Under the pieces are notes generated by a model that ran no database searches, was not told the origin of the DNA, and was given only the letters and a program-made list of their open reading frames with translations. From contig JAFZAB010000167.1 in NCBI GenBank assembly GCA_017548425.1, positions 2,202 through 66,201 on the forward strand: a stretch of 64,000 nt of DNA, read 5' to 3'. Numbering within the stretch: position 1 is the stretch's first letter; each line of letters starts with the position of its first letter. Below are positions 5,401 through 59,194 of the stretch, piece by piece. The translations under genes were made by a program, and so were the position numbers. The stretch comes from Victivallales bacterium. Lineage in GTDB: Bacteria > Verrucomicrobiota > Lentisphaeria > Oligosphaerales > Oligosphaeraceae.

Positions 5401-8097
5401 GTTGGGCGTCACCGTATAGGTCAGCGTATCGACGCCGTCCGTCAAGTCAGGATCAGTAATCGTCACAAAATCGGCCAAAGCGTAAACGCCAGCGGCTTGA
5501 TCTTCGGTAGCTTCCAGAACAGCGCCTTTAATCTTCGCAATCGTCGGAACCGTATTGACGATTTCAGCGCTGATTGCTTCGGCCGACGCTTCATTTTCAA
5601 CGGCGTCACCGCCATAGGGGGTCGTCAACGCAATGGCCTTGACAGCGATCGTCTGGCCTTTCTTGAAGTAGCTGTTATCCAGCGTTTCGCCAGTCACATC
5701 GTCGATGGCGGCGCCATCGACGGTCCAAGCGAACTTGTAACCAGTGATCACATCGCCGTCGGGATCGACAGGCGTGCCATTGACCACTGCGGTCAGATTA
5801 TCTTCCGTCTTCGGGGATTCCGGATCGAACGTCAACGTGAAATCAGCAGGAGCGAGACGATCCACATCGTTGACCGTGACCGTGAACTTCTGCGTCGTGA
5901 CGGCGCCCAGAGCGTCTGTCACGTTGGCCGTGACGGTGAACTCCTTGTTGGCGGGACGATCCGCGCCGTCCAGCGTCGCATAGCCGTTCGTCTTGACGAC
6001 AATCGTGCTCGTGGCGGCGAGCGTGTCCAGACCTTCTGTCGTGGTTGAATCAATGGTCAAGCCTTCATCCGCCGTCCATTCGATCGCCGTGATGCCGGCG
6101 GGCGTGACTTCTTCGGAATCCGTCGCCGCGATGGCGATCGTGAAGCTAACAGCTTCACCTTTGTCATCGACTTCGTCAATCGTTTCGGGAGCCGCCGTCG
6201 TGATGGCGACTTCCGCAGGAGGATTCTCACGGTAGGTGACCGTCAGCGTGGCTTCCGCGCTGTCGTCCGTGCCGTCGTTCACGACGAAGACAACCGTGTC
6301 GGCGTCATTGTCAAAGAATTCAGCCGCTTTGTCCGTCACCGTATATTTAATGGTATTACCGTCAACTTCCGCCGTGCCCTTCGTGCCCTGCGTCTTGATG
6401 ACGATTGTCAGTTCGTCTTCATCGACATCGGCCATCGTGATTTCAGCCGTGCCGACACCGTCGCCGCCATCCATCTTGCGGATGAACAGCGCCGCGTCCG
6501 CCGTCGTCGGAGCGGTGTTGCCGATTTCGATAACATTGCTTGCAAATTCCTGCTCGGCGGCGACTTCGTCGCCATACGGCTTCACCGTCGCAACAGCCTT
6601 GATCTGCCAAGCTTCGCCTTTCTTGACAGCCGTCTTCAATTCCAAAGCCGTCTCGCCCGCGACGGCCACGCTGTCGCGATACCACTGGTAGGTGATTTCC
6701 GCCGTGTCGCCGTCATCGTCCGTGATGTCATCGGTGAAAACAGCCGTCAGCTTGCTGCCATAGACGGCGGGATCAGGCGTCGCACTAGCCGCGATGGCGG
6801 ATGCGCCGAAATCCGTAGCCTGGTCAACATCATTGATCGTGACATCGGCATTGGCGGTTCCAATGGAGCCTTCATCGTCGATATTGTCGTCAATCGTCAC
6901 GACCAGAGCGGCCGTCTTGTCTTTTGCAGGATGCGCAACCGCATCAAAACCAACAGGTTCGGTAGCCGTGAAGGTATAGACGGGAGCCGTGCGGGTCGTC
7001 TCGACCTTGCCAGCCGTCCATTCGCCGGCGATGACAGCGCCGTCCAACGTGACAGTCTTCGTGAAAGCATCCCACGCCGTGTCGGGATCTTCGAACGTCA
7101 TCTCAAATGTCAGCGCTTCACCTTCGTTGACATTCAAAGGATCCGTCACGATGGCGATCGCCGGAGCGTCGTTGACGGCATTGACGACGACATTCACGGA
7201 ACCGGTAACAATGGCGGAAGACTCCGAGTTCGAGAGTTCCGTGAAATCCGCGATATAGTTCAGCGTGAAGCTGCCATTATAATCCGGTGCAGGCGTATAG
7301 ACAATCTTGCCATCGACGAAATCGAGCGTGCCGGCAGCCGAATCAATCGGATCAGCATAGACGAATTCGACAGCGTCCGTCGCAACCATCGCTTCGGCTG
7401 CAATATCCCACACTTTGGCCGTGAAGAGAGCCGTATCCGTCGCGTCAATCGCCACGGCTGCATCATCTTCGTTCAGCGTCACTTCCGCGCCATCATTCGT
7501 CACGAAGCTGTAGGAGTTGCGGAGCAGATAGAAAATGAACGTCAGGCCTTCATCATTGTAGTCTGAATAGTTGACTTTGTCAACTTTGCAAGCCGTGACC
7601 TGTCCGAACACGCTCGTGGCCTCCGCCGTCTCGTCCGTGGCGTCGATGTCAACCGCGAACGCGACATCGCAAAGTTTCGCCTTCACGCCGCTTTTCAGTT
7701 TAAGGATCGAGGGGACATTTCCCGCCACGGCAATACTCAGACTAATCGTTAGAACATTGTCGGTGACAGACGTCTTGACAACGGTCTGGCTCTTATCGAT
7801 TTCACCGCCGGACGTCAAGTAGAACAAATCCTTGTTCAGCGTCACGGACGCCGTGGTACCGGCCGTCACGCCATCAGCCATGGTCACACCATCGCCCAAA
7901 GCGATTTTCATAATCAGCTGCGTAACATTTTCGCCTGTCGATGTCACGTAAATGGCCGTTGACGGCGTCGTCGTCGAACTGTATCCCTTCACGACGGTCG
8001 CATCCACAGGATCGAACTCCAGCGTCAACGCCGCGAACGCACCCATGGAGCACGTCACGAAGATGGCTGTCATTAAGTTGAGCAATTTTTTCGTCAT
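2440..8097 (-). CDS. Giant secreted repeat adhesin (cadherin-like / tandem-95-type modules, FN3-like C-terminal modules)
   Basis: 1885-aa ORF with an AGGAG box upstream of the ATG at 8097 and a signal peptide (MTKKLLNLMTAIFVTCSMGAFA). Contains many acidic T/V/D-rich modules of about 95-100 aa ending in VNDAP, VNDIP or VNDVD. Two 432-aa super-repeats lie in tandem. Confidence 0.8.
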   Translation of the reverse strand: MTKKLLNLMTAIFVTCSMGAFAALTLEFDPVDATVVKGYSSTTTPSTAIYVTSTGENVTQLIMKIALGDGVTMADGVTAGTTASVTLNKDLFYLTSGGEIDKSQTVVKTSVTDNVLTISLSIAVAGNVPSILKLKSGVKAKLCDVAFAVDIDATDETAEATSVFGQVTACKVDKVNYSDYNDEGLTFIFYLLRNSYSFVTNDGAEVTLNEDDAAVAIDATDTALFTAKVWDIAAEAMVATDAVEFVYADPIDSAAGTLDFVDGKIVYTPAPDYNGSFTLNYIADFTELSNSESSAIVTGSVNVVVNAVNDAPAIAIVTDPLNVNEGEALTFEMTFEDPDTAWDAFTKTVTLDGAVIAGEWTAGKVETTRTAPVYTFTATEPVGFDAVAHPAKDKTAALVVTIDDNIDDEGSIGTANADVTINDVDQATDFGASAIAASATPDPAVYGSKLTAVFTDDITDDDGDTAEITYQWYRDSVAVAGETALELKTAVKKGEAWQIKAVATVKPYGDEVAAEQEFASNVIEIGNTAPTTADAALFIRKMDGGDGVGTAEITMADVDEDELTIVIKTQGTKGTAEVDGNTIKYTVTDKAAEFFDNDADTVVFVVNDGTDDSAEATLTVTYRENPPAEVAITTAAPETIDEVDDKGEAVSFTIAIAATDSEEVTPAGITAIEWTADEGLTIDSTTTEGLDTLAATSTIVVKTNGYATLDGADRPANKEFTVTANVTDALGAVTTQKFTVTVNDVDRLAPADFTLTFDPESPKTEDNLTAVVNGTPVDPDGDVITGYKFAWTVDGAAIDDVTGETLDNSYFKKGQTIAVKAIALTTPYGGDAVENEASAEAISAEIVNTVPTIAKIKGAVLEATEDQAAGVYALADFVTITDPDLTDGVDTLTYTVTPNFDATVGTFSFDAEALTVTFTPAENYNTAALETLPTFSVAVSDGTETTEAVAVEISVASVNDIPTAEDVALFIRKLEGGDGTGSVEVPMSDVEGDALTIVIKKQGAKGTAEVVGNAIQYTVTDLTTEFFDDAADVVTFVVNDGTDDSEEHTLTVTYRENPPAEIAITTAAPEAIDEVDDKGDAVSFTVAISATDSEEVTPAGITKIEWTADEGLTIDTIETDGLDTLAATSSAVIKTNGYTTLDGADRPANQEFTVTATVTDALGATTTETFTVTVNDVDRLAPADFTIAFDPAEPKAEDDLTAVVNGTPADPDGDDIIGYKFVWTVNGAEVAEDGDVLAAANFKKGDTIAVKAAALTKPYAAEDVENDYMEEAASIAIANTVPALAKVEGAKLEATEDQGAVDFALNDFVTVIDPDAVDGVDTLAYTVTPNFGEEVGTLTYDAESGNVTFTPAEDYNTEGLEALPTFSVTVSDGEVTTDAVEVEISVAAVNDAPKATVQDVYIQPSQVGTTVTASFAIAAGPEDETAQQLALAAWAYTGSVDGKALMGGDPTAEVDNEAKTIIFNFPIDENAENGATGTVSFTLQDDGDPAQTAEFTFKVIVSGTPWYPAFVLNCDDDVEGLMVRITSDGEQTDVVVKEKNDEGKFVLTPATYYNSGFKGFERGVTGDVTVYHWTAKGGAGEECSAEQDGIVVPDYAAPGQPTIEGTVDANAITVTAPLASGFVLTVYDADGNVVTTVAQEFGPAADGELMESTALVTLTGLESGKTYKAVAQGVNPMGEYSENSEEFVIDLTDSPATEWPGDGEFYPAQNWTTTIATNAMDVTFKWPVDAKSDSYTLKVFDGDGNAVKTVNGIAVNMAVVNLPAGNYRWLVETSNGGVSELMLFTIIKNAGNNAVITGGMGAGNTLLLDAENLTPGATYKYDVIYFDTKYNQWAYQLFTGRADADGTLLELTGDDVSLYEGPNYIMIRPTAQGSYQTLLINESRN
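3935..6526 (-). repeat. In-frame tandem duplication, 2 x 1296 bp (2 x 432 aa), diverged copies
   Basis: The LFIRK codons at 5179-5193 and 6475-6489 are exactly 1296 nt apart. Shadow ORFs 4448/5744, 4697/5993 and 4940/6236 are each offset by 1296. By eye the protein copies are roughly 70-75% identical with no indels. Boundaries are approximate. Confidence 0.8.
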
Positions 8098-12272: not shown

Positions 12273-13091
12273 CTATTTTCCGCCGTTGGACGAGACCGTT
12301 CGGACAATCTCTCGGTCGAAGTAATTGATGGACATGCCGGCGTCCACGACGATGGTCTGTGCATCCACGCCGCTGGATCGCGGCGACAACAGAAACGCCG
12401 CCACGTTCGCGGGCTCCTCCGTCGCCAACGCACTCTTTCGCGGAATTGCCTTCTCCGCATAGAGATACGCATCGATGTAGCCTGGAATTCCTGCCGACGA
12501 CGATGTCTTCAACAGCCCCGGCCCGACGGCGTTCACGCGAACGCATCGTCGTCGTTCCGAAATCAGCGATTTCGCCAGAAACGCCACCGTTGAATCCAAC
12601 GCCGCCTTGACGGGCCCCATGTAGCCGTAGTTCTCCGACGCCATCTTCGTCGTGGAGATGCTGATTGTCACGATGGATGCGTCTTCACTCAACAGCTCTT
12701 TTAGCTGGTTCGTTGTCTCCACGAGCGAAAAGCACGATATTTCAACAGCTTGCAGAAAATCCTTCCGCAATGTCTCATGAAACGGTTTCACGCCTTCCGA
12801 ATAATTCGCGAACGCGATCGAATGGACATATCCATGGACGACGGGAAACACATCCTGCACACGCGCGCCGAACGCCTGAATGTCCGCTTCCTTCTCCACA
12901 TCGCATACAATCGCCTTCGCATCCGCGCCGATCAAGCCGCGATTTTTCTCCAGAAGTTCTTCATCCTTAAAAACATACAGGATGTTCGCGCCATTTTCGC
13001 GAAGCACCTGCGCAATGGCCCACGCCACGCTACGGCGATTCGCCACGCCCATCAACACGATATTCCTATTTTCCAATTGCAGAAATGACAT
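12273..13091 (-). CDS. fabI: Enoyl-ACP reductase (NADH), FabI type
   Basis: N-terminal LMGVANRRSVAWAIAQ, plus Y..MGPVKAAL (the Y-x6-K motif). The ATG at 13091 overlaps the upstream gene's stop (TGATG). Confidence 0.75.
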   Translation of the reverse strand: MSFLQLENRNIVLMGVANRRSVAWAIAQVLRENGANILYVFKDEELLEKNRGLIGADAKAIVCDVEKEADIQAFGARVQDVFPVVHGYVHSIAFANYSEGVKPFHETLRKDFLQAVEISCFSLVETTNQLKELLSEDASIVTISISTTKMASENYGYMGPVKAALDSTVAFLAKSLISERRRCVRVNAVGPGLLKTSSSAGIPGYIDAYLYAEKAIPRKSALATEEPANVAAFLLSPRSSGVDAQTIVVDAGMSINYFDREIVRTVSSNGGK

Positions 13092-14266
13092 CAACGCCCC
13101 GTCTTCGACCCGCTTCTCAGCAGGCCATTGTACAATACCGCCAATTTATCCGCCTGGTTCGACAGACGGAAATCCGTTTTCATGAACTCCACGCCGAAAG
13201 CGGCCCGCTCTTTCGCCCACTCCGGCTCCTCCGCCGTCTTCTCCAACGCCCCCGCCAATGTGTCGATATCGCCTACTTCAAACGTCTGCAGGCAGTTACG
13301 CAAGTCTGGCCGCGGCACATTCGCCAGAATGTTACTGACAATCAACGGAATGCCCGATGTCAAACATTCCAGTAAGACATATGATAGTCCTTCATACAAC
13401 GACGGCAAGACCGCCATGTCAAAGGCCATCAGCAACGACGACAAATCCGGAACGAAGCCAAGAAACCTTACGCGATCGGACACGCCCAGACGGGCGGCCA
13501 ATTCTTCCAGTTCCGATTTCAACGGACCATCGCCACAGAACAGCACCTGCAGGCGGCCGCCCTTCTCCCCATGGCAACGTTCCAATGCCGCAAGTACCTG
13601 CTGCAAGCCTTTTTGCCGCGTCAACCGACATGGCACAACCGCCCATGTCTCATCGAGCGCCAAGCCAAGCCGCTTCCGCGCCTCATCGCGCCCTAGCAGC
13701 GTCTGCCCATAGTTTTCCGGAAGACCATTTTCAATCAAATGAAACTTTTCCGGCGGAAGGCAAAGCAAATTCGCGTCGCTGATTTCCGAACGGCCGACGA
13801 ACACATACGCATTCGTCCGATGCGCCCCCCACTGTTCAATCATGCGAATCGACATCCGCACCCATAACGGAAGGCTCGGATGAACGGCGAACGCATGCGG
13901 CGAATAAATGACTTTCACGCCAGGCAACGCCTTGCAGGCCAGACGGCCCACGAAACCCGCGACGCTTGAATGAAGATGCATCGCCTGAGGACGCACGTCA
14001 CGCAGAACTCCCCGCAACTGCCGCACGGCTCGCCATAGCGACATCACGCCGTTGCGTTCATAGGGAAACGACCAGACCTTGCATCCGTCAACTTGCTCAA
14101 AATGAGCAAGATCCGACGGGAAATCACGGTCATACCGCGCCCCGAACGCAAACACGCCGCAACGAATGCCGCGCCGTGTCAGTTCAGGCAGAATCAATTT
14201 CAGATGGCGCCGCACACCGCCACCGCACGCTTCTACGACATGCAATATGTCCAATTCGTCATTCAT
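13091..14266 (-). CDS. Glycosyltransferase family 4 (GT-B fold)
   Basis: ILHVVEACGGGVRRH N-terminus and an E-x7-E motif (EGLSYVLLECLTSGIPLIVSN). Start placed at ATG 14266 (MNDELDILHVV) rather than the alternative start at 14296. Confidence 0.7.
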   Translation of the reverse strand: MNDELDILHVVEACGGGVRRHLKLILPELTRRGIRCGVFAFGARYDRDFPSDLAHFEQVDGCKVWSFPYERNGVMSLWRAVRQLRGVLRDVRPQAMHLHSSVAGFVGRLACKALPGVKVIYSPHAFAVHPSLPLWVRMSIRMIEQWGAHRTNAYVFVGRSEISDANLLCLPPEKFHLIENGLPENYGQTLLGRDEARKRLGLALDETWAVVPCRLTRQKGLQQVLAALERCHGEKGGRLQVLFCGDGPLKSELEELAARLGVSDRVRFLGFVPDLSSLLMAFDMAVLPSLYEGLSYVLLECLTSGIPLIVSNILANVPRPDLRNCLQTFEVGDIDTLAGALEKTAEEPEWAKERAAFGVEFMKTDFRLSNQADKLAVLYNGLLRSGSKTGR

Positions 14267-14305
14267 AACATATGATATACCATTCGCCGACGGCAAGCCG
14301 TCGGC

Positions 14306-35607: not shown

Positions 35608-36537
35608 TTATTTTTCCTCTTGTATCACATACGGGGGGCGGCGCTTCACTTCCTTGTAAATTTTGGAAATATAAAGCCCCATCACGCCGAGCATGATGAA
35701 TTGCAGGCCGCTGAAAAACGTCAGGCAGACGAAAATCGTCGTATAGCCAGGCACTGGTTCGTGGAAGAACAATGTCTTGATGATTGTCTTGACGCACATC
35801 ACCGCCGCAAACAGGCATGTCACCACGCCTAAGCCGAAAGACGCGGTCAGCGGAACCGTCGAAAACGACGTAATTCCTTCCATCGCATATCGTAGCAACT
35901 TCCAGAACGACCATTTGGTTTTACCGCTCTGACGCTCCTCAAAGTCGAAAGACAGCCATTTGACACGATGCCCAACCCAAACGAAAATGCCCTTGGAAAA
36001 ACGGTTGGTCTCTTTCAACGATAGCACGGATTGCAGATACGCGCGGTTCATCATGCGAAAATCACGGGCGCCTTCTTTCAGTTCGACATCCGTCATTTTC
36101 GTCATCAGCCAATAGAACATTCGTGCAAAAATATTCAGACAGAATGTTTTCTTGTCGCGTTGCGAACGGCAGGTCGCAACACAGTCGTATTCGCCGCTTT
36201 CCAATGCGTCGAACATTTCCGGCAGCCGTTCAGGCGGATCCTGCAAGTCAGCATCCATGACGGCGACATAGTCGCCTTTCGCACTTTCCATGCCAGCCAA
36301 CATCGCCGCCTCTTTTCCGAAATTTCGAGAGAAGGAGCAGTAGTGGACGCGTTCGTCATTCGCCTGCAACGACTTGATGGCATCAAGCGTCCCGTCGTGT
36401 GAGCCATCATCAACGAAGCGGAATTCCAACTGCGCCTTTCCTTCCAACGGCCGCAGGGCTTCCAAGACAGTCTTGTAAAGAAGCCCTAGGCCGCTTTCTT
36501 CATTATAACATGGGATGACAAGCGAAATCAGTTTCAT
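35608..36537 (-). CDS. GT2 polyprenyl-phosphate glycosyltransferase (ArnC/GtrB/DPM1-like)
   Basis: SLVIPCYNEE, VDDGSHDGT, DADLQDPP (DxD), and two C-terminal TM helices. Confidence 0.8.
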   Translation of the reverse strand: MKLISLVIPCYNEESGLGLLYKTVLEALRPLEGKAQLEFRFVDDGSHDGTLDAIKSLQANDERVHYCSFSRNFGKEAAMLAGMESAKGDYVAVMDADLQDPPERLPEMFDALESGEYDCVATCRSQRDKKTFCLNIFARMFYWLMTKMTDVELKEGARDFRMMNRAYLQSVLSLKETNRFSKGIFVWVGHRVKWLSFDFEERQSGKTKWSFWKLLRYAMEGITSFSTVPLTASFGLGVVTCLFAAVMCVKTIIKTLFFHEPVPGYTTIFVCLTFFSGLQFIMLGVMGLYISKIYKEVKRRPPYVIQEEK

Positions 36538-45548: not shown

Positions 45549-47726
45549 TTACGCTTCTTCAAGCGTAGGTTCTTCGTTGAACCAGTCGATCATGTCCTGC
45601 GGCAGCGGGCTGATTTCGACAATCTGGCCATGTTCGCCGCTGGGCATTTCCAGACGTTCATCCAACTTGCGGCCAATCAACAGCTTGCCAAGAGGCGTCT
45701 CAAAGGAAATCATGTTGCGTTTCGGAACCGTGTCCAACAGACCCAAAACGTAATAGGTTTCTGTGCGGCCACCGGAGAATTTCACCGTAACAGCGCTTCC
45801 GAGAACCACCGTATCCGTGACTTCCACGTCACGGAAGTCCGTACCACGCAGATCCACGAGGCTGCTTTCATATTCGCGGCGCATCTTGCCGAGCAGGCTC
45901 TGCTGCTCTTTCGCGAACTTGTATTCGGAGTTTTCGCGCAAGTCGCCCAAGCTGCGGGCATGTTCCAAAGCATCCGCATTGGCAGGAATCTGTTCCTCGA
46001 CCAAATTCTTGAGCTGCATCTCACGCAGTTTGAGGCTTCTCCAACTCGTGATACGCGGCAACGCGGCACGCTGATGAATCGCCTTGCGCTCTTCAACCAG
46101 ATGCTTGAATTCCGGATACAGACGGATGATTTTCACTTCCAAACTCTGGCGGTCGCCGGCTTCCAACAACGGCATCCGCTTGATGCAATGGATGAATTCA
46201 GTCACCGTCTCTTCGTTACCGTAGTTCATAATCAGACGCTGGAACGGTTCGTCGTTCATCATCAGCTTGAACAGGTCGCGATGAGCCTTCAAATAATTGC
46301 CTTTCACGTCTTTCTGCAACGTACGGAACAACAGGACGGACTTCGTCAGATAGCGCATCTTCAAGTCTTCGTAGTCGGACTTCCAAAGCCAGAACATCGC
46401 ATCGGCCGTCACATCGCCGCCATCCATCGCCGCATCAACGGCTTCCGCCAGACGCGCACGTTCGTCGTTCGTCAGATTCTTCTCCGTGCCAGCCCACAGG
46501 CGATACGGGAGCTTGAGAGTACGTTCAATCAGATAATCCGCGCCTTTGGCCTTCTTCGTGACTTCAAACCACGGAATGACCAATTTGCCGGCCAGCTTGT
46601 CGCTCGCTTCAATGAAGAGCTCCTCGTTCTCCCACACAACCGCTTTCTTCTCGGCGAGCATGGCGATCGTCTTGTCGAGCTCCGGCTTCAAACCATTCGG
46701 AAGCATATGCTGCAAAGACGCGAGCGCCGTCGCAAGCAACAACACCATGTCGTCACGATTCGCGGCATATTCGAAGATGTTCATGATATTGTTAAGATCC
46801 GGCTTCGAAGATTCTTCGATAACGGGATTCAGCTTCAAGCGTTCATTCAATTCCAGCAAGCTTCGGCTCTGATCCCAACTCATCGTGTTGACCGCGCCGC
46901 CAGCCTGCGCATCGCCGCCCTGCTTCGCAGGAACGCCGGACGTCAAGACTTTGAACTGCGCTTCCGTCATCACGCCTGGAACCAGCAAGGCGCGGCCCGG
47001 ATTCAGCAACGCAGGACGCGCGCTCGTGATGTGGCTGTTCATGAATTCCGTCAGCGACTTCAAATCCGTCTTCTCAGGACGCGTCTTCTTCGTCATCCAA
47101 TTGTGGACTTCGGAGTCCATATCGACAACCATCAGATTGTCCAAGAAGTTACGGAGCCCCAACGTCTGGCGTTCAGCCTTCTTCATGCTGTCCGCCTTCT
47201 GGCCGGTGGCCTGACGTCTTACGAATGCGACACGGACTTGACCGCTGATTTCGTCAATCGAATCGACGACGCCGACGCCGAACGCGGGCGTATAGCAGAA
47301 CGCGCCTTTCTTCAGGGCGCGAAGGACTTCCAGACGCTTGCTGATTTTGTCCAAAGCCTCGCCTTCCTTATGGATATTGAGGTTGTCCACCAGACCGTCG
47401 GGATTCTCCCACGCGGGGAACATCTGCTTGGCAAGAGCCGCGTACAAGTTGCGGAGCATGACGCCGTCCAGACCAGCCGCCAGCATCGCCTCGACCAACT
47501 TGAATTCCGCCTCGTCAAGCGTCTTGAGCGACGCCTTTTCGGCGAATTTCTGCAATCCGCTTTCCCATTTGGCACGAACGCTTTCGTCCCATCCTGCGCA
47601 CTGCCGCGGTTCGGCCACTTTCAAAATTTCCGTCAGTTCCTCAATGGCCGAACGATCGGGAACCGCCGCGCCATCAAAAAGTTTTGCAAGCTCTGCACTG
47701 GTTGAATAAGTGTTGGAATCAGCCAT
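45549..47726 (-). CDS. greA: GreA/GreB-family transcript cleavage factor with an N-terminal extension of about 570 aa
   Basis: The C-terminal ~155 aa carries GDLRENSEYKFAKEQQ and a GreA-like C-terminal beta domain (VTVKF.GG..ETYY.LG, ISFETPLGK.L.G.K). The start is uncertain (ATG at 47726 or 47732, TTG at 47753); AAGGTG precedes 47726. Confidence 0.7.
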   Translation of the reverse strand: MADSNTYSTSAELAKLFDGAAVPDRSAIEELTEILKVAEPRQCAGWDESVRAKWESGLQKFAEKASLKTLDEAEFKLVEAMLAAGLDGVMLRNLYAALAKQMFPAWENPDGLVDNLNIHKEGEALDKISKRLEVLRALKKGAFCYTPAFGVGVVDSIDEISGQVRVAFVRRQATGQKADSMKKAERQTLGLRNFLDNLMVVDMDSEVHNWMTKKTRPEKTDLKSLTEFMNSHITSARPALLNPGRALLVPGVMTEAQFKVLTSGVPAKQGGDAQAGGAVNTMSWDQSRSLLELNERLKLNPVIEESSKPDLNNIMNIFEYAANRDDMVLLLATALASLQHMLPNGLKPELDKTIAMLAEKKAVVWENEELFIEASDKLAGKLVIPWFEVTKKAKGADYLIERTLKLPYRLWAGTEKNLTNDERARLAEAVDAAMDGGDVTADAMFWLWKSDYEDLKMRYLTKSVLLFRTLQKDVKGNYLKAHRDLFKLMMNDEPFQRLIMNYGNEETVTEFIHCIKRMPLLEAGDRQSLEVKIIRLYPEFKHLVEERKAIHQRAALPRITSWRSLKLREMQLKNLVEEQIPANADALEHARSLGDLRENSEYKFAKEQQSLLGKMRREYESSLVDLRGTDFRDVEVTDTVVLGSAVTVKFSGGRTETYYVLGLLDTVPKRNMISFETPLGKLLIGRKLDERLEMPSGEHGQIVEISPLPQDMIDWFNEEPTLEEA

Positions 47727-47789
47727 CTTCATCACCTTTTTTGTTTTGGACAACTATTTAAAATTTTAATCAATCTTCTTGAACGCCTT

Positions 47790-49959: not shown

Positions 49960-51669
49960 ATGGAAGAATACATTTGGGAACAAACAGAAAACAATGAAGA
50001 CAGGGTGCAGGCCCTGATCAATGAAGCAGGAGTCACAAGACCAATCGCCCTCGTATTGGACATGCGAGGCATCGGTCCGGAAAAAATACGGGACTTCCTA
50101 AACCCGTCCATATCGGACATAGGGGATCCGTATCTGCTGCAAGGCACGAAGGAGGCCTCCGCCAGACTCTGGCAGGCCATCCACAACGGGCAGAGGATTC
50201 TCATCCACGGCGACTATGACACGGACGGCATCACTGCCTCCGCCCTTCTCGCATGGGTGCTCCGCCGTAACGGCGGCAACGTGGAATGCTATTTGCCGCA
50301 TCGTATTGACGACGGCTACGGCCTCACCGTCGAATCCATCAACAAAACCCACGCCAACAAGGCGGACCTCCTCATCACCGTCGATTGCGGCATCACATCC
50401 TACGAAGCCGTCCAGGCCTCGAAGGATATGCAGTTTGACTTAATCATCACGGACCACCATACGCCGGGCGTCGAACCACTAGACGCATATGCTGTCGTCG
50501 ATCCGAAACTGCCAGGCTCCCCCGTTGAAATACAGGAGCTTGCCGGCGTCGGTGTCGCCTTCAAAGTCTGCCATGCCTTCTTGAAGTACGGTCGTGAACA
50601 CGGCTTCGGCGGAGAGGACACGGATTTGAGGCAAGGTCTTGATCTTGTTGCACTTGGAACGGTTGCTGATATCGTTCCGCTCCTCTATGAGAACCGAATT
50701 CTCGTCAAGCATGGTCTGAAAGTTCTCGCGGGCAAGCAACGCCCTGGAATCCATGCGCTTTGCGAAATTTCCGGCGTCAGCGAAGAACTCGCCACATCCG
50801 ACATCACCTATCGGCTGGCTCCCCGCATCAACGCCACCGGTCGTCTCGGCGCCCCGACGGATTCCCTCCGCCTGCTGGAAGCGGACAACATGGTTGATGC
50901 CGCCAATCTCGCCCGCAAGCTAGACGAACAAAACCGCGAACGCCAGACCATTGAGGAAGCGGTTGTGACAGACGCAGAAAACCAGATTGCAGCACGTTAC
51001 GACTTGAGTTCGACGCGTTCCATCGTCGTCTGGAGCGAAGGTTGGCATCAAGGCGTTGTCGGAATCGTCGCTTCTCGCCTGACCCGTAAATACCACCACC
51101 CGTCCGTCGTTCTCACACGCGATCCATCTGGACAATTCACTGGATCCGCGCGATCCATCCGCAAATTGAATCTGGTTGACCTCCTTGGCGTCTGTTCCGA
51201 TTCACTGATTCGTTTCGGCGGCCACGCCATGGCAGCCGGCCTTTCTCTGACGGAAGAGAATCTTGAGTTGTTCTGTAAGCAATTCGATGAAGCCGTCCAA
51301 AAGGTTCTCGGCATCGATTCCATGAAACCCGTCATCGCCGCCTGCGGCAACGTCGCCTTCAGCGAATTGGATGATGTTTTCTTCCAAGAACTTGAGATGC
51401 TTGAACCTTTCGGGCACGGTAATCCCGAACCCGTTTACATTACGAAAAACGTCATTCCGGAACGCAAAATGCCAGCCGGCAAGAACCACACCCGCGGCAT
51501 GGTGAAAGACGAATCCGGAACGCGCATGCAGTTCATCGCCTTCGGACGGCTGCCGGACCAGTTCCCGCCGCCGCCGTGGGACATCGTCTTCTCACCGCAC
51601 ATCAATCGCTTCAACGGCATTGCGATGCCGCAGCTTCGAATTCTGGACATCAAACCTGCACAAGGATGA
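49960..51669 (+). CDS. recJ: Single-stranded-DNA-specific exonuclease RecJ
   Basis: DHH-family motifs ILIHGDYDTDGITASA, ITVDCG, IITDHH and GGH.MAAG. Confidence 0.85.
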   Translation: MEEYIWEQTENNEDRVQALINEAGVTRPIALVLDMRGIGPEKIRDFLNPSISDIGDPYLLQGTKEASARLWQAIHNGQRILIHGDYDTDGITASALLAWVLRRNGGNVECYLPHRIDDGYGLTVESINKTHANKADLLITVDCGITSYEAVQASKDMQFDLIITDHHTPGVEPLDAYAVVDPKLPGSPVEIQELAGVGVAFKVCHAFLKYGREHGFGGEDTDLRQGLDLVALGTVADIVPLLYENRILVKHGLKVLAGKQRPGIHALCEISGVSEELATSDITYRLAPRINATGRLGAPTDSLRLLEADNMVDAANLARKLDEQNRERQTIEEAVVTDAENQIAARYDLSSTRSIVVWSEGWHQGVVGIVASRLTRKYHHPSVVLTRDPSGQFTGSARSIRKLNLVDLLGVCSDSLIRFGGHAMAAGLSLTEENLELFCKQFDEAVQKVLGIDSMKPVIAACGNVAFSELDDVFFQELEMLEPFGHGNPEPVYITKNVIPERKMPAGKNHTRGMVKDESGTRMQFIAFGRLPDQFPPPPWDIVFSPHINRFNGIAMPQLRILDIKPAQG

Positions 51670-51679
51670 ACGATTTCAA

Positions 51680-51714
51680 CAGACGCCCCGCCGAAAGCGG
51701 GGCGTCTGTTTTTT
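51680..51714 (+). terminator. Rho-independent terminator after recJ
   Basis: CAGACGCCCCGC-cgaaa-GCGGGGCGTCTG followed by TTTTTT. Confidence 0.75.
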
Positions 51715-51796
51715 CGCCATAAACTACGCAAGGCTTCCTCAACACCCAAATGGATAATACAACATAATATAATAATACGTTGACCATTCAACCGAC

Positions 51797-51925
51797 ATGA
51801 ATCTCATGCGCCATGCATTTCGCCCAAGCCTCTTGTTTCAACGGAGTCAGTCTATGATCACTATCGGCAATCCTTGGATAGAGGAAAGAGGCGATGACGT
51901 CTATCTTATGCAGTCCTATTGTTAA
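51797..51925 (+). pseudogene. Short 5' gene fragment homologous to the N-terminus of the adjacent island gene
   Basis: MITIGNPWIEERGDDVYL (from ATG 51854) aligns with MITIKRPHIENRNSSYYV of the 51970 gene: 9 of 17 residues identical, including the first 4. Differences at identical residues are synonymous and follow the GC shift. The fragment stops after 23 codons. An in-frame ATG also lies at 51797. Confidence 0.4.
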
Positions 51926-51969
51926 CGAAGTCCCACCCCAATTATCCCTTTTTGTAATAATATCCACAA

Positions 51970-53190
51970 ATGATTACCATTAAGAGACCACATATTGAAA
52001 ATAGAAATAGCAGCTATTATGTAATTACTGAGATTTCTAGCACGACTGAAAATATCAGTAAAGAAATATGGTATAGGACCACCGAAGAATATGCGGATTA
52101 TTTAGTGGATGAGGTCGCCGACGCTTTTGTTCTGCCAATGTTGCTTGTGGCTTTGAGGAATCAGGAGGATATCAAAGTTGAAGCTCCTATTTCCGAAAAG
52201 CTTTATTACAATATAAAAAATAATATTCTTTATACGTTAAGCATCCCGCTACATGTTAATTATAAGATAAATGTCGATTGTGAAGGTTATGTAACACCCT
52301 CCTTTCAACCGACAGCTGTTGGATGCGGATGTTCATTGGGCGTGGATTCATTTTCAGCGATGATCGGGCATATGTCGGCAGACTGCCCTAAGGGTTTCAG
52401 AATTACTCATTTGACCAACTTCAACGTAGGTGCATACGGTAATGATTTTGAAAAGACAGAACAATTTTTCCATGAGGCTTTACCAGATGTTAGAAAATAT
52501 GCTCAGGAAAAAGGATTGCCCCTTGTGCTATTGGCGTCTAACTTTGGACCATTCTTTGAGGGGGTTAATTTCAATTGGTGTGGTCCATTAAGAACAATGA
52601 GTGCGGTGCTGTCATTACAAAAGCTTTTCAAAAGATACTATTATGCATCAAGTTGCACCAACAAGGATTTCAATTTTGGAATGGGTATGGGTGATTTCGC
52701 ATCGCTTTTATTGCCTATGATATCTACAGATAACACGGAAATAATTGTAGCAGACCAAGATAAGACGCGCATTGAGAAAACTGCTTCAATTGTGGATAAT
52801 CCAGAAGCGCAGCATTATTTGGATGTATGTTGGAAAAGGATAAAGGCTAACAGAGGAGATACGCGTTATTTGCAGTACCCGTACAAGAATTGTACGCGCT
52901 GTTCAAAATGTCAAAGGACATTGCTCACTATCGACATACTTGGATACACCGATAACTTTAAGGAAGTCTTTGATGTAGAGTATTTTAAACAGAACAGGGA
53001 TGAAATTGTAAGAAACTATGTGGCTAGAAAAGACGAGAACCACCATTTTCATGAAGTGTATCAATTTATGATTGATAAAGGGTATCCCATCCCCCAAGAA
53101 AGAAAAAAGAAAAAAATAAAGAAATTTTTCAGGAGTTTTCTTAATGAAATTATTAAAAAAATTAAGAGAATTTTTAATAGTGCCTTTTAG
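51970..53190 (+). CDS. Hypothetical protein, possibly a divergent QueC/PP-loop (adenine nucleotide alpha-hydrolase-like) enzyme with an extra N-terminal domain
   Basis: 406-aa ORF in low-GC DNA. It has a PP-loop-like AVGCGCSLGVDSFSAM (aa 116-131) and, about 190 aa later, C-x20-C-x2-C-x2-C (DVCW...NCTRCSKCQR), reminiscent of the QueC zinc site. This is a motif-level call only. Confidence 0.4.
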   Translation: MITIKRPHIENRNSSYYVITEISSTTENISKEIWYRTTEEYADYLVDEVADAFVLPMLLVALRNQEDIKVEAPISEKLYYNIKNNILYTLSIPLHVNYKINVDCEGYVTPSFQPTAVGCGCSLGVDSFSAMIGHMSADCPKGFRITHLTNFNVGAYGNDFEKTEQFFHEALPDVRKYAQEKGLPLVLLASNFGPFFEGVNFNWCGPLRTMSAVLSLQKLFKRYYYASSCTNKDFNFGMGMGDFASLLLPMISTDNTEIIVADQDKTRIEKTASIVDNPEAQHYLDVCWKRIKANRGDTRYLQYPYKNCTRCSKCQRTLLTIDILGYTDNFKEVFDVEYFKQNRDEIVRNYVARKDENHHFHEVYQFMIDKGYPIPQERKKKKIKKFFRSFLNEIIKKIKRIFNSAF

Positions 53191-54226
53191 AGCAAGAGAA
53201 TATTCCAATCAATATTTCTCGGGGGACTTGCGACTGAAAATGTATAATGGAGAGAGTTATGCCGATGCACTTGCTGACGCAGTGGAAACTTATTTGCCAG
53301 AACAAGCCAAAAAGGATCAAAGAATTCTAAGAAAAATCGTGACAAAGGCCATAAAAAGCAATCTATTGTTTGGGTTCAAGCCTCACGAATATTTTATGTA
53401 TGATTTGTCGGACAAGAGTGTTGCGGAATGGTCTGAATACTTGCCGGAAAAGGAGAGAGTTGGAACGTTGAATCGAGCCTTCGGGTTGGATTTGAAAACA
53501 CAATTACGTGACAAATGGATTTTTTACCAATTGGCCAAACCATTTTTCAAGAGAGAGATATTTCATCTGACAAAAGACACCAAAGTAGATGATTTTACTT
53601 CTTTCGCCAAAAGGATCCGTCATATATTCTGCAAGCCGACAGATGGACACATGGGAATTGGCGTAAGTCGTCATGATATTGATGAGCAGACAGATATTGG
53701 ACAAATATACCATGAGCTGTTGTCCATCTATCAGAACTGGGTTATTGAAGAGTGTATAACCCAAGGAAAAGAAATGTCGATGTGGAATGAGAGTAGTGTC
53801 AATACCGTCCGTTTCCCTTCGTTCTTTAAAGAAGGAACACTCACTCCATATTATCCTCGCATTCGCACTGGTCGCCAAGGGCAAATTGTCGATAATGTGG
53901 CGCAAGGGGGGCTGATAGCTTTTATCGATGCCAAAACAGGAATAATCAATACGGATGGTTTTTACAAAAAGAACCAAACAAGCAGTGTTCATCCAGACAG
54001 CGGAATCACATTTAAAGGAACTGCAATTCCTCATTGGCAGGAGTTGCTAAAATATGCTGAGGATTTGCATAAGGCATTGCCCCAGCATGTTTATATTGCA
54101 TGGGATTTTGCTTATACAGACAAGGGATGGGATGTGGTGGAAGCCAATTGGGGGCAAATGGATTCCACACAAATGATCATCGGACATGGAATACGAAAAG
54201 AATTCCATGAATTATTAGGAAGGTAA
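53144..54226 (+). CDS. ATP-grasp ligase of the sugar-transfer-associated (ATPgrasp_ST-like) type
   Basis: AGGAG box 8 nt upstream. Motifs FCKPTDGHMGIGV, WVIEECI.Q, NTVRFPS, VAQGGLIAFID..TG, HPDSGITFKG.AIPHW and IAWDFAYTDKGWDVVEANWGQ. Overlaps the previous gene by 47 nt. Confidence 0.65.
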   Translation: MKLLKKLREFLIVPFRAREYSNQYFSGDLRLKMYNGESYADALADAVETYLPEQAKKDQRILRKIVTKAIKSNLLFGFKPHEYFMYDLSDKSVAEWSEYLPEKERVGTLNRAFGLDLKTQLRDKWIFYQLAKPFFKREIFHLTKDTKVDDFTSFAKRIRHIFCKPTDGHMGIGVSRHDIDEQTDIGQIYHELLSIYQNWVIEECITQGKEMSMWNESSVNTVRFPSFFKEGTLTPYYPRIRTGRQGQIVDNVAQGGLIAFIDAKTGIINTDGFYKKNQTSSVHPDSGITFKGTAIPHWQELLKYAEDLHKALPQHVYIAWDFAYTDKGWDVVEANWGQMDSTQMIIGHGIRKEFHELLGR

Positions 54227-54233
54227 AAATGGT

Positions 54234-55340
54234 ATGAAGATTTTGTTTGTTGGCGATGTGATGCCTGGAGGCGTTTTGCCTTATCAAAGCACATATATTG
54301 ACAAAGAACTTTTGTCCTATATGCAATCTTTTGATTTACGAATCGGGACATTGGAATGCGGAGTCGGAACAAACATTCCATTCGATTCGCGAAAGATGGA
54401 TACCTATAAGTCCATTGTGTATGTACGCAATGAAGATATCCACAGAATTTCTGAAATGGGATTCAATATAGTCTCTTTGGCCAACAATCATGCGTTTGAT
54501 TTGGGCGTTGATGGATTGAACAATGCCATCTCTCTTTTAGACAAGCTGGGAATACAGCATTTTGGAGCAGGCGCCAACAAAGAAGAGGCCCAAAAGCCTG
54601 TCGTAATCAACAACGGGAACGAGAAAATTGCCATATTTGGTTGCATGTTCGATTATCGTGTGCCATATATCTTTTATACCGCAACCGAAAGTAATCCAGG
54701 CGTTTACCATGCAAATATCGAAGATGTTGTCTTATATATCCGTGAATTGAAAAGGAAATTTGACAAGGTCATTGTAATGCCTCATTGGGGTGAAGAACAT
54801 AAATATCTTCAGAATAAACTATTTAAGGAATATGCCTGTCGCATGATAAAAGCCGGAGCTGACGCAATCATAGGCAGCCACCCCCACATCATCAATCCTG
54901 TCGTGAGTTTCTCTGGGAAAAAATGCTATTTCAGCCTTGGCAATTTCCTTTTCCCTGAAAAATGCATGCAGGTTCCACGCCCGATGTATTATCCCGAAAC
55001 GAAGGAGGAATACCTGTCGCTGAAGCGAATGTGGACCTATCCCAAGAGTATATCGGAACCAATTGTAGCAGTTTGGAAACCAAAGAACCGCATTGGCATG
55101 ATGGTGGAGATGGATGTCAATGATAATTTGAAGAGCCACTATCATTTAACCTGTTTGACAGCAGACAATGTATTGCATCGCTACTCATCTATGGCAGTGC
55201 GACTTCGCATGGCTTTCTGGGCACTCCTTATGCATCTGCCCAAATACGGATTGGCGCTCCGTTTATACAATCATCGATATAATTTGTTACGTCGCATAGT
55301 GGATAAATTACCGGCTTTCAACATTCCTGTAAAATTATAA
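54234..55340 (+). CDS. CapA/PGA_cap-family metallophosphoesterase-like protein
   Basis: Motifs ILFVGDVMPGG, SLANNHAFDLG, HFGAG.N..EA, VMPHWGEEH and GADAIIGSHPHI. No N-terminal TM anchor; the C-terminal end is hydrophobic. Confidence 0.7.
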   Translation: MKILFVGDVMPGGVLPYQSTYIDKELLSYMQSFDLRIGTLECGVGTNIPFDSRKMDTYKSIVYVRNEDIHRISEMGFNIVSLANNHAFDLGVDGLNNAISLLDKLGIQHFGAGANKEEAQKPVVINNGNEKIAIFGCMFDYRVPYIFYTATESNPGVYHANIEDVVLYIRELKRKFDKVIVMPHWGEEHKYLQNKLFKEYACRMIKAGADAIIGSHPHIINPVVSFSGKKCYFSLGNFLFPEKCMQVPRPMYYPETKEEYLSLKRMWTYPKSISEPIVAVWKPKNRIGMMVEMDVNDNLKSHYHLTCLTADNVLHRYSSMAVRLRMAFWALLMHLPKYGLALRLYNHRYNLLRRIVDKLPAFNIPVKL

Positions 55341-55376
55341 GAATGACTAAAAAATCATTCGGGAACCATTACTGAT

Positions 55377-57092
55377 TCAGTCCAATATGATGTTCTCGCA
55401 TGTCCCGCCACTTGGAATCATCGGCAAGACACTTTCCGCCGCAGTTATATGAATGTCAAGCAGATACGGTTCCTTCGCGTCAAGCATTTCACGAAGCGCC
55501 GCATCCAATTCATCCTTTTTCCAGACGTCTCGCCCCGCGATTCCATAGCCTTTGGCGATTTGCACAAAATCCGGATAGGAGCGTTTCGCACGCTTCACCG
55601 CCATGTCCGTATCCGCATGGACACCGCCATAGAACTGATCTTCCCACTGCGACACCATGCCCAATATCTGATTGTCCAAAATGATCATCTTCAACGGCAG
55701 ATTCGTGGCATAAACCGTCGCCAGCTCTTGAATGTTCATTTGGAAACCGCCGTCACCGTCGATGAGCACGACAGTTTCTTTGGGAGCGGCCAATTTCGCT
55801 CCAATAGCCGTCGGTAGCCCGAACCCCATCGCGCCGAGACCGCCGCTCGTCAGCAACTGCCTTGGGCGGTTATAGTTATAAAACTGCGCGGCCCACATCT
55901 GGTTTTGGCCGACGCCCGTCACAATCGTCGCCTCGCCATCCGTCAGCTCCGCCAGACGACTGACCACCTGCTGCCCCTTGATCTCCTTTCTGTAGTCGTC
56001 TTTATATTTGAACGGATGTTCCGCTTTCCATTTGTCCGTCAGTTCCAGCCAGAACTCATGGCGACCGCGTTCAGGCTTTTCCAACATTGCACGGAAAAGC
56101 TCCTTCGCATCGCAGACAATCGGCAGATCGGCATGCTTGTTCTTGTTGATTTCCGACGGATCGATGTCCGCATGCACGATTTTCGCACGCGGCGCGAATT
56201 TCGCGATATTGCCTGTCACGCGGTCGCTAAAACGAACGCCGACGCCTAGCAATAAATCACATTCATGCACCGCCTTGTTCGCCGCATAGCAACCATGCAT
56301 GCCCAGCCATTTCAAACTCAGACGATGGTTTTCAGGAAACGCGCCGATGCCCATAAGCGACGTCGCAACGGGAATCTGATAAGCCTCCGCAAAAGCCAGA
56401 AGTTCCTTGCTCGCATTGGAATGGATGATTCCGCCGCCAACAAACATGCATGGACGGCGACTCTCCTTCAACATTGTCCGCAACGCCTCGACGCTTTCCG
56501 CCTTCGGCGTAGCATCCACTGTGCTTTTGCGCATGCAAGGCTTTTGAGAAAACACGGGATTGCAGACCGCCTGCTGGACATCCCACGGAATGTCGATGAC
56601 AACTGGGCCAGGCCGCCCGTTCTTCGCCAGATAGAACGCCTCCGCAAACACTTGCGGCAATTCCATCGGATCAAGCACGAGATAGCTGTGCTTCACGCAA
56701 AGCCGCGTCATACCAATGATATCCGTCTCCTGAAAGGCATTTTTTCCAATCAAATGCTGATTCACCTGCCCCGTGATGACGACCATCGGCACGGAATCCG
56801 CGCAGGCGTCCGCGATGCCTGTCACGAGATTTGTCGCTCCAGGCCCGCTTGTCGCCATGCAGACACCGACTTCGCCTGTCTTCCGCGCATAGCCGCCCGC
56901 CGCAAACGCTCCGCCTTGCTCATGACGCGGCAGAATGACGCGCACACCTGCATCATGCAACGCATGATGCAACGCCATCGACGCGACACCAGGATATGCG
57001 AACACAAACGGAACGCGCGCTTCCAACAGGCAGTGCGCCACGATCTCCGCGCCGTTCATGCCGGAGCCGTTCTTCTGTTCTTTCAGCTTCAT
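55377..57092 (-). CDS. ilvB: Acetolactate synthase large subunit (ThDP-dependent)
   Basis: MATSGPGATNLVTGIADA and the ThDP motif IDGDGGFQMNIQEL. The start is uncertain (ATG at 57092 or 57059, TTG at 57101). Confidence 0.85.
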   Translation of the reverse strand: MKLKEQKNGSGMNGAEIVAHCLLEARVPFVFAYPGVASMALHHALHDAGVRVILPRHEQGGAFAAGGYARKTGEVGVCMATSGPGATNLVTGIADACADSVPMVVITGQVNQHLIGKNAFQETDIIGMTRLCVKHSYLVLDPMELPQVFAEAFYLAKNGRPGPVVIDIPWDVQQAVCNPVFSQKPCMRKSTVDATPKAESVEALRTMLKESRRPCMFVGGGIIHSNASKELLAFAEAYQIPVATSLMGIGAFPENHRLSLKWLGMHGCYAANKAVHECDLLLGVGVRFSDRVTGNIAKFAPRAKIVHADIDPSEINKNKHADLPIVCDAKELFRAMLEKPERGRHEFWLELTDKWKAEHPFKYKDDYRKEIKGQQVVSRLAELTDGEATIVTGVGQNQMWAAQFYNYNRPRQLLTSGGLGAMGFGLPTAIGAKLAAPKETVVLIDGDGGFQMNIQELATVYATNLPLKMIILDNQILGMVSQWEDQFYGGVHADTDMAVKRAKRSYPDFVQIAKGYGIAGRDVWKKDELDAALREMLDAKEPYLLDIHITAAESVLPMIPSGGTCENIILD

Positions 57093-57201
57093 GTCTTTCA
57101 AAAAGTGTTCATTACATGTCTTCTCTCCCTATATTAATGTAATTAATGTATGGCTGTCTGCAACTCCGTCAGACTACATGTGTGACTATATGTGACGACA
57201 G

Positions 57202-58761: not shown

Positions 58762-59194
58762 TGACTCCTATTCTACACGATTTCAAATATTTTCTCTAAT
58801 AATATATCACTGAATTTTATATATGCAATTCATAAGAATTCTTATAAAATCTTATAAATTCCTAAAGAATCATAAAAAGTCATAGGATTTCTTATGATTT
58901 ATATAATATCTGCAATATTAATTTGACATATATTTTACAAAATTCATAGTTAAATTTTGCAATTCACTCATTTCCTAAATTCTAACCATCATTCATATCT
59001 CATACCCAATAAATTTTCATATTTATTTCTTTTCATGCAATAATATGACACAAATCACAAGAGATATAATGGATCCGCATTTGGATTTTTTCAGCCTCTT
59101 AATTGGAAAATTCAGCTTATGCATAAATATTAAGGTTATGTATTGTCCATTAAACATGGTCATCAAGCAAGACACATAATTAAGGAGTACGAAC

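Follow-up and report, generated by a model that had tools for sequence, protein, structure and literature searches.

O-antigens and capsules commonly bear amino-acid or peptide substituents, some of which are D-configured, and these substituents shape antigenicity and recognition by phages and the immune system; to our knowledge, the enzymes that install them are mostly unknown. PP-loop enzymes of O-antigen and capsule loci, namely the WbpG/PseA-type N-acetyl sugar amidotransferases (TIGR03573) and the AsnB-like uronate amidotransferases, act on sugar substituents by activating a carbonyl or carboxyl group. TupA-like ATP-grasp ligases (PF14305) are predicted to add amino acids to surface polymers, according to work cited in PMC12632600, and one of them, the C-terminal domain of Cj1438, forms an amide on the C6 carboxylate of glucuronic acid in the Campylobacter jejuni capsule (PMC11800379). 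In poly-gamma-glutamate synthesis by PgsBCA, removal of pgsA shifts the polymer from 75% D to 95% L (PMC6029982). MslH, a PGA_cap homologue with a calcineurin fold, is a Ca-dependent epimerase of the C-terminal residue, a Trp, of a lasso peptide (PMC10406935). Here we describe a trio of genes, P1, P2 and P3, found in a low-GC island within a 64-kb stretch of the genome of a gut Victivallales bacterium (contig JAFZAB010000167.1, positions 2,202 to 66,201; hereafter the window, numbered from its first nucleotide). They encode a putative PP-loop-type protein, an ATP-grasp ligase and an anchor-less CapA-like protein. We consider it quite likely that the island is a glycan-type decoration cassette acquired by transfer. 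On balance it is also probable that it represents a transferred fragment of a Wzx/Wzy-type capsule or O-antigen locus, kept functional as a self-contained module for decorating a sugar polymer with amino acids or peptides.

The three genes all lie on the + strand: P1 at 51970-53190 (406 amino acids), P2 at 53144-54226 (360 amino acids) and P3 at 54234-55340 (368 amino acids). Their open reading frames are packed exactly as stated in a preliminary description made from the sequence alone, with a 47-nt overlap between P1 and P2 and a 7-nt gap between P2 and P3. The proteins are deposited as MBR5079681-83, from a Victivallales (Lentisphaerota) metagenome-assembled genome (MAG), and are annotated as hypothetical, hypothetical and 'CapA family'. 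As the preliminary description had supposed, the trio has not been characterised as a system.

P2 is a member of the ATPgrasp_ST family (PF14397; 126.2 bits against a gathering threshold of 31.4, E = 1.8e-36, residues 121-356), the assignment made in the preliminary description. Its residues K124, K164, R223, D321, E333 and N335, the last two forming an E-x-N motif, are invariant among 23 locus homologues and would, by analogy with other ATP-grasp enzymes, match the lysine and Mg-ligand positions expected for activity. A search of the PDB returned no solved relative. P2 relatives share loci with TupA-like ligases, Wzx and glycosyltransferases, and the reaction proposed for the trio is of the type catalysed by Cj1438. 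Unlike in the Cj1438 pathway, however, the trio's ligase is coupled to the P1 family, being fused to it in some genomes, and is accompanied by a CapA-like enzyme; the trio also differs from the surface-polysaccharide amidoligases in standing outside any glycan locus.

P3 is a PGA_cap metalloenzyme with a calcineurin fold (PF09587; 170.6 bits against a cut-off of 27, E = 5.7e-50, residues 2-241), its family again as first proposed. An N-terminal anchor is lacking: the Pfam match begins at residue 2, the maximum Kyte-Doolittle hydropathy over 19 residues is 1.03, and hydropathy analysis found no transmembrane segment in P1, P2 or P3. The trio resembles PgsBCA/CapBCA in combining a PGA_cap (CapA/PgsA) domain with an ATP-dependent amide ligase, PgsA itself influencing D-Glu content. 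It differs from these systems in the location of its CapA-like protein, which is cytoplasmic, in the fold of its ligase, which is ATP-grasp, and in the presence of a third, PP-loop-type protein. PgsB (of the Mur-ligase family) and PgsC are absent, as had been pointed out, the island holding only P1, the ATP-grasp gene and the CapA-like gene.

The sole relatives of P3 in the PDB are entries for MslH (8GQ9; E = 1.2e-16), whose catalytic dyads are His88/Asp91 and His295/Asp11 and whose Ca ligands are Glu44, Asn87, His259 and His261 (PMC10406935). Residues D8, E41, N85, H86, D89, H184 and H218 are invariant in 18 sequences, P3 and 17 glycan-locus homologues, and correspond to MslH D11, E44, N87, H88, D91, H259 and H295, or seven of the eight catalytic or metal residues, with D8 and E41 paired by position and not by printed alignment. 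On this pairing both His/Asp dyads would be preserved in P3, as would most of the metal ligands. It is 72 residues shorter than MslH, has an extra invariant histidine (His216) and, unlike MslH, has no genes for RiPPs (ribosomal peptides that carry post-translational modifications) nearby.

P1 belongs to a large family without any profile model. No match was found in Pfam, NCBIfam (E <= 0.1), PADLOC or PDB sequences, even with a 53-sequence profile, and the 53 family members gave no credible Pfam match at E <= 1. The family nevertheless comprises 6137 clusters (50% identity) at E <= 1e-3, and 1399 at E <= 1e-30. An AlphaFold2 model built from the family alignment (predicted local distance difference test score, 94.5) shows an alpha/beta domain at the N-terminus (residues 1-110), a beta-alpha core of Rossmann-like type and a helical part at the C-terminus. 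In this model the motif G120-C-S-L-G-V-D-S127 sits between the first core strand (116-120) and the helix 125-135. Among 266 relatives the motif reads S-[LGCA]-G-[VI]-D-S, with Gly and Asp invariant and the S/T and S positions invariant or nearly so; 52 of them have the canonical PP-loop sequence SGGxDS. R267 and a Cys4 cluster (C287, C308, C311 and C314) are invariant in the same set, and K270 is nearly so (259 K, 7 R). The C-terminal helix (385-402) is cationic and strongly amphipathic, with a hydrophobic moment of 0.77 and a net charge of +5, a type of helix typical of peripheral membrane anchoring.

The preliminary description had called this protein QueC/PP-loop-like, and the two halves of that label fared differently: the PP-loop-type motif is real, whereas membership of QueC found no support. 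In common with QueC, Cap9 and QatC, P1 has a PP-loop-type S-x-G-x-D-S motif, placed where a strand meets a helix, and a C...CxxCxxC cluster after it; this cysteine pattern resembles QueC's zinc site. Three of the four best Foldseek matches of the P1 model are PP-loop enzymes (Cap9, which ranks first, TilS and NcsA), all non-significant (E 0.1-0.3, template modelling scores 0.25-0.51), and the list for the full-length protein also held spurious matches to PTP1B and RNase H. Identity with QueC was rejected: neither P1 nor 52 relatives match PF06508, and hhalign gave a probability of 0.7% with two PDB QueC sequences. With deeper profiles the P1 motif was aligned, in register, on the PP-loop of QueC and the strand after it, at a probability of 9%, the QueC profile remaining shallow since the QueC homologues among the matches listed were all at least 79% identical. 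P1 differs from the QueC group, moreover, by its extra 110-residue N-terminal domain, its C-terminal amphipathic helix and its context, which is glycan synthesis and not queuosine synthesis or defence. It is also separate from the PP-loop amidotransferases of glycan pathways, although an AsnB/QueC-like PP-loop gene adjoins P1 in one locus (L016). Our reading is that P1 is probably a PP-loop-type nucleotide-binding enzyme of a new family, distinct from QueC.

In which pathways do relatives of the trio operate? A scan for P1 with one genome per species yielded 25 loci, distributed over Bacteroidota, Cloacimonadota, Verrucomicrobiota, Lentisphaerota, Cyanobacteriota, Acidobacteriota, Bacillota and Deltaproteobacteria. 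A count over the three genes on either side of P1, covering 24 species-level genomes from many phyla, is headed by ATPgrasp_ST (11), PGA_cap (8) and Polysacc_synt/Wzx (7). They are followed by Ddl-like and Mur-ligase-like ligases, GT1 and GT2 glycosyltransferases, acyltransferases, pyruvyl transferase with FrhB-like partners, AlaDh-like proteins, DegT and AsnB. Four to eight genes away, the neighbours are mostly GT1, GT2 and GT4 glycosyltransferases, Wzx, TupA-like ATP-grasp ligases, sugar epimerases and dehydratases, FemAB and UDP-glucose dehydrogenase. An ATPgrasp_ST or a PGA_cap gene, or both, stands beside P1 in 21 of 29 non-redundant loci, and both do so in eight.

The co-occurrence of the trio elsewhere, which had been proposed as a check, is borne out by several arrangements. 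Loci L042 and L043 hold Wzx-P1-ATPgrasp_ST-PGA_cap, the gene order of the window, with proteins 54, 48 and 65% identical to P1, P2 and P3. A Rikenellaceae contig carries Wzx-P1-PGA_cap-AlaDh-ATPgrasp_ST (two copies)-TupA-GT2, and other metagenome contigs carry Wzx-P1-PGA_cap-ATPgrasp_ST-PGA_cap-P1'-ATPgrasp_ST (two copies)-pyruvyl transferase-glycosyltransferase, Wzx-P1-ATPgrasp_ST (two copies)-PGA_cap-TupA-PGA_cap, and Wzx-P1-P1'-PGA_cap (two copies). A distant P1 homologue lies between a pyruvyl transferase and a GT1 gene in an exopolysaccharide cluster of Gloeothece. In-frame fusions of P1 to ATPgrasp_ST occur in L015 (236-2560), L018 (7508-10555) and protein P0198, two Akkermansia MAGs being among the carriers; such fusions would predict an interface between P1 and P2. 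In other proteins P1 is fused to two GT2 domains, to a polysaccharide pyruvyl transferase, or to Mur_ligase_C, LRR and VanY domains (P0237, P0249 and P0192 are among the fusion proteins). Of the two functions first suggested for the trio, a surface polymer or glycan modification and a conflict system, the former is strongly favoured by these Wzx loci, where P1 relatives sit with glycosyltransferases, ATPgrasp_ST and TupA-like ligases, PGA_cap proteins, pyruvyl transferases and UDP-sugar enzymes.

Two further features of the P1 loci deserve mention. Six additional P1 fusions have an N-terminal domain of about 270 amino acids without family assignment. Several capsule loci with P1 (L012 7372-10001, also L011 and L014; L041 1680-7253; L042 3759-5874 and 15956-18589) also carry organic-acid enzymes, namely MaoC hydratase, HpcH/citrate-lyase-like, PrpD-like, class I fumarase, 2-hydroxyacid dehydrogenase and AlaDh/opine-dehydrogenase-like proteins. 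Their presence points to the making and ligation of unusual acidic or opine-type substituents at these loci.

The same neighbourhoods bear on the possibility that the trio makes a free-standing oligo- or poly-amino acid, or a small peptide, as an alternative to PgsBCA and without any glycan. The ATP-grasp enzyme would then ligate or polymerise like RimK or PgsB, the CapA-like protein would set the D/L content, and P1 would prime or cap the chain. Poly-gamma-glutamate synthesis, with its D/L ratio under the control of pgsA (PMC6029982), is the process for which the CapA family is best known. Mur-ligase-like (PgsB-like) genes do stand beside P1 in some loci, and in the window the trio is alone, under purifying selection and without glycan genes nearby. 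P2 also matches the RimK-related alpha-L-glutamate ligase model TIGR02291 (E = 1.7e-6), but the match is partial and weak, at 27 bits against a cut-off of 314. Nearly all the relatives we found of the three genes, however, lie inside polysaccharide loci beside Wzx and glycosyltransferases, and the island has neither an exporter nor a membrane component, with no transmembrane segment in the trio. We regard a polymer of this kind as unlikely.

The likeness of P3 to MslH, whose substrate is a ribosomal peptide (PMC10406935), raises another question: could the trio modify a protein or a ribosomal peptide? In such a post-translational cassette, a protein carboxylate would receive a residue from the ligase, a C-terminal residue would be epimerised by the MslH-like enzyme, and P1 would activate the C-terminus. 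There is a precedent in Klebsiella, where modification (oxidation) of the fimbrial subunit FimA depends on CfmP, a TupA-like ATP-grasp protein, and does not need cell-surface polysaccharides (PMC12632600). Cap9, the best Foldseek match of P1, was deposited in complex with a CdnD protein bearing an NDG modification, but this match is non-significant (E = 0.1). The orphan status of the trio in the window would suit such a role. The island has no precursor-peptide gene, however, its only small open reading frame being an apparent decaying remnant of P1 that has lost its start codon in a sister island, and no RiPP recognition, protease or cyclase genes were seen near any homologue inspected. This makes a protein-modifying function improbable.

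The conflict-system hypothesis, an anti-phage system built around a QueC-like enzyme as in Qat or type IV CBASS, has in its favour the strain-variable nature of the island, the PP-loop motif of P1 and its top, non-significant structural match to Cap9. One homologous block also adjoins a candidate defence gene pair: in L042 (13606-15834), and also in L043, an AAA_15/AAA_21 ATPase of 494 amino acids and a 245-aa gene directly follow Wzx-P1-ATPgrasp-CapA within a capsule locus, and may be a small defence insert. None of P1, P2 and P3, however, has a PADLOC match; the surroundings of the trio contain no QatA, QatB or QatD, CD-NTase, TGT-like (Cap10) or effector gene; P1 is not a QueC; no relatives were found in IMG/VR viral contigs or phage records; and the homologues sit in glycan loci, not in defence islands. 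We therefore set this hypothesis aside as having very little chance of being correct.

The island itself is horizontally acquired: its composition deviates from that of its surroundings, and its presence differs between close relatives. Its G+C content is 0.396 against 0.539 for the remaining window (z = -7.7, relative to all other same-size windows of the 64-kb stretch, whose minimum is 0.499), so that the drop first noticed from hand counts is real. Values range from 0.33 to 0.43 within the island and from 0.52 to 0.59 in the flanks, the tetranucleotide distance is also extreme (z = +8.3), and the G+C content at third codon positions is 0.37-0.46 in the trio compared with 0.62-0.65 in recJ, ilvB, comM and the sigma-54 regulator gene. 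In the sister strains L044, L047 and L048, recJ and the gene for a thiamine pyrophosphate (TPP) enzyme are 84-98 bp apart with nothing between them. Homology of the flanks to these empty sites ends at about 51726 and resumes at about 55383. The sigma-54 regulator protein is identical in L044, where the site is empty, and in L046, where the trio is present. The existence of sister strains with an empty site makes the island a true insertion, and the foreign origin claimed earlier is thereby upheld.

From the empty-site comparison, the island spans about 51727-55376 (3650 bp, without assigned strand). Its right end, at the stop codon of the convergent ilvB-like TPP-enzyme gene (55377-57101, - strand), is where the preliminary description had placed it; the left edge had been put at 51926, about 200 bp too far downstream. 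The island starts directly past the intrinsic terminator hairpin of recJ (51678-51710, + strand), a perfect 14-bp stem followed by a T-run, which was found by inverted-repeat search and direct reading. This hairpin is present at the empty sites too; it belongs to the host flank and marks the left edge of the conserved host sequence. Searches for a mobility signature found no tRNA at the island, no direct repeat or target duplication flanking it, and neither an integrase nor an integrase-sized open reading frame within it. A promoter and terminator scan of the island did no better than on shuffled sequence.

The closest relatives (54-72% identity) lie on metagenome contigs with a G+C content of 0.41-0.44, the range at the level of the loci being 0.38-0.44; among relatives with a name, a Rikenellaceae MAG ranks first, at 42% identity. 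A gut anaerobe of low G+C content, with capsule loci in the style of Bacteroidales, was probably the donor. At the 5' end of the island, a gene stub of 23 codons (51854-51925, + strand), reading MITIGNPWIEERGDDVYLMQSYC and then a stop, matches the N-termini of P1 homologues (tblastx, E = 0.002 to L017). Its ATG start codon in the window is CTG in the sister island of L046. Judged by sequence, the stub looks like the decaying remnant of a second P1 copy, and as such it suggests excision of the island from a locus that, like L041, had P1 genes in tandem.

Is the trio then a non-functional relic of gene transfer, passively carried? The fragmentary nature of the island, the decayed second P1 copy at its 5' end, the lack of partner genes nearby and a composition that has not drifted towards that of the host would all be expected of one. 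The three open reading frames are intact, however, with catalytic residues conserved and identical lengths in the window and in the L046 island, two lineages separated by a synonymous divergence (dS) of 0.38-0.81 in the trio, similar to that of the flanking genes. The ratio of nonsynonymous to synonymous divergence (dN/dS) between the two is 0.116, 0.135 and 0.066 for the three genes. The low dN/dS and flank-like dS lead us to conclude that the trio is resident and under purifying selection, and a relic is highly improbable. The trio also occurs at the identical site in six further metagenome contigs.

For the favoured reading, a glycan-decorating module, we propose the following chemistry tentatively, as a possible scheme that may well prove wrong in its details. 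P1, P2 and P3 would all act at the cytoplasmic membrane face, on a lipid- or nucleotide-linked sugar with a carboxyl group, for example a uronic acid or a sugar with a pyruvyl or lactyl substituent. P2 would form an amide between this carboxylate and an amino acid, converting ATP to ADP and Pi by way of an acyl-phosphate. P3, acting like MslH, would epimerise the alpha-carbon of the newly added residue from L to D, the free carboxylate of the residue binding the metal. P1, as a new PP-loop-type ATP pyrophosphatase with a Cys4 metal site and an amphipathic membrane helix, would convert ATP to AMP and PPi through an acyl-adenylate; this second carboxylate activation would either start a side chain or cap it as an amide. 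Wzx would flip the finished unit, and in this genome the acceptor glycan would have to be encoded elsewhere. By analogy, known chemistry supports two of the three proposed steps, ATP-grasp amidation and PGA_cap epimerisation, whereas we infer the P1 step from its motif and modelled fold alone.

Several observations weigh against this reading or parts of it. The trio is an orphan in the window: a flippase gene, a polymerase gene and a sugar-nucleotide gene are all missing within 15 kb. The nearest glycosyltransferase genes, at 13091-14296 and 35608-36537, are the only two in the window, both of them lone and more than 15 kb away. This orphan status makes other acceptors possible, such as a free peptide or polymer product, or a protein target. 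Eight of the 29 P1 loci have neither an ATPgrasp_ST nor a CapA-like gene. A solitary P1 homologue also occurs on Paracoccus plasmids, outside any glycan locus; on plasmid pYEE4 of Paracoccus yeei (L052 11380-13056) it is a 558-aa protein, 29% identical and with an N-terminal extension, standing among catabolic genes. The P1 family is therefore not confined to polysaccharide loci. As to the enzymes, P1 is assigned to the PP-loop type by its motif, by the place of this motif in the model and by matches that are not significant (Foldseek E = 0.1, hhalign 9%). In P3, Gly186 stands at the position of MslH His261, as does the same glycine in the 17 glycan-locus homologues, and the protein's score with the MslH equivalog model NF038314 is 76.2 bits, where the cut-off is 700; epimerase activity has been demonstrated for MslH alone. 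Literature searches for PF14397 or ATPgrasp_ST, and for the P1 family, returned nothing, and we know of no characterised member of either. Finally, the order of the three reactions is a guess. The direct neighbours of P1 were scanned in six of the eight loci with neither partner, and are Mur-ligase-like, TupA-like, AsnB-like, Wzx or glycosyltransferase genes.

The idea that glycans receive amino acids from ATP-grasp ligases already exists, and the trio is therefore not a new kind of system. What is new is the recurrent three-way association of these gene families in one cassette. The P1 family is new as well, with more than 6000 sequence clusters without a Pfam or NCBIfam profile, and stands beside the flippase in many gut Bacteroidales capsule loci. 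The association also implies a testable role for anchor-less CapA-family proteins in glycan loci; such genes have been left without an assigned role in O-antigen clusters, for example that of E. coli SD2019180 (PMC10606467). The orphan trio, strain-variable in Victivallales, represents a minimal natural version of the cassette. A bolder and rather doubtful extension would see in P1 a new and very large PP-loop-type adenylating clade dedicated to surface glycans. With the cytoplasmic CapA-like epimerase and the ATP-grasp ligase it would form a portable three-enzyme machine that builds amide or peptide side chains containing D-amino acids on lipid-linked sugars, epimerised in place after ligation. 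If this were true, the D-residues would arise after ligation and not from a racemase-made pool of D-amino acids, and the long-enigmatic CapA/PgsA family would gain a general function.

Around the island, the trio's neighbours are recJ (49960-51669, + strand), which forms its left flank, and the ilvB-like, comM-like and sigma-54 regulator genes; the remainder of the window consists of housekeeping genes, including those for RpoA, LepA, BamA, LptF/G, NadE and an RND pump. The region 45549-47753 encodes a protein of about 730 amino acids that has GreA/GreB domains at its N- and C-terminus and greatly exceeds canonical Gre factors in length; its place beside the sigma-54 regulator is conserved in all sister contigs. 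An intergenic stretch of about 430 bp (58762-59194; G+C about 0.25), between the comM-like gene and a gene for a DUF1565/Pel9A-like beta-helix protein, is the sole other strongly AT-rich spot in the last 20 kb of the window. Near the other end, 2440-8097 encodes an 1885-aa protein with Big_9 and cadherin-like repeats, a probable surface adhesin.

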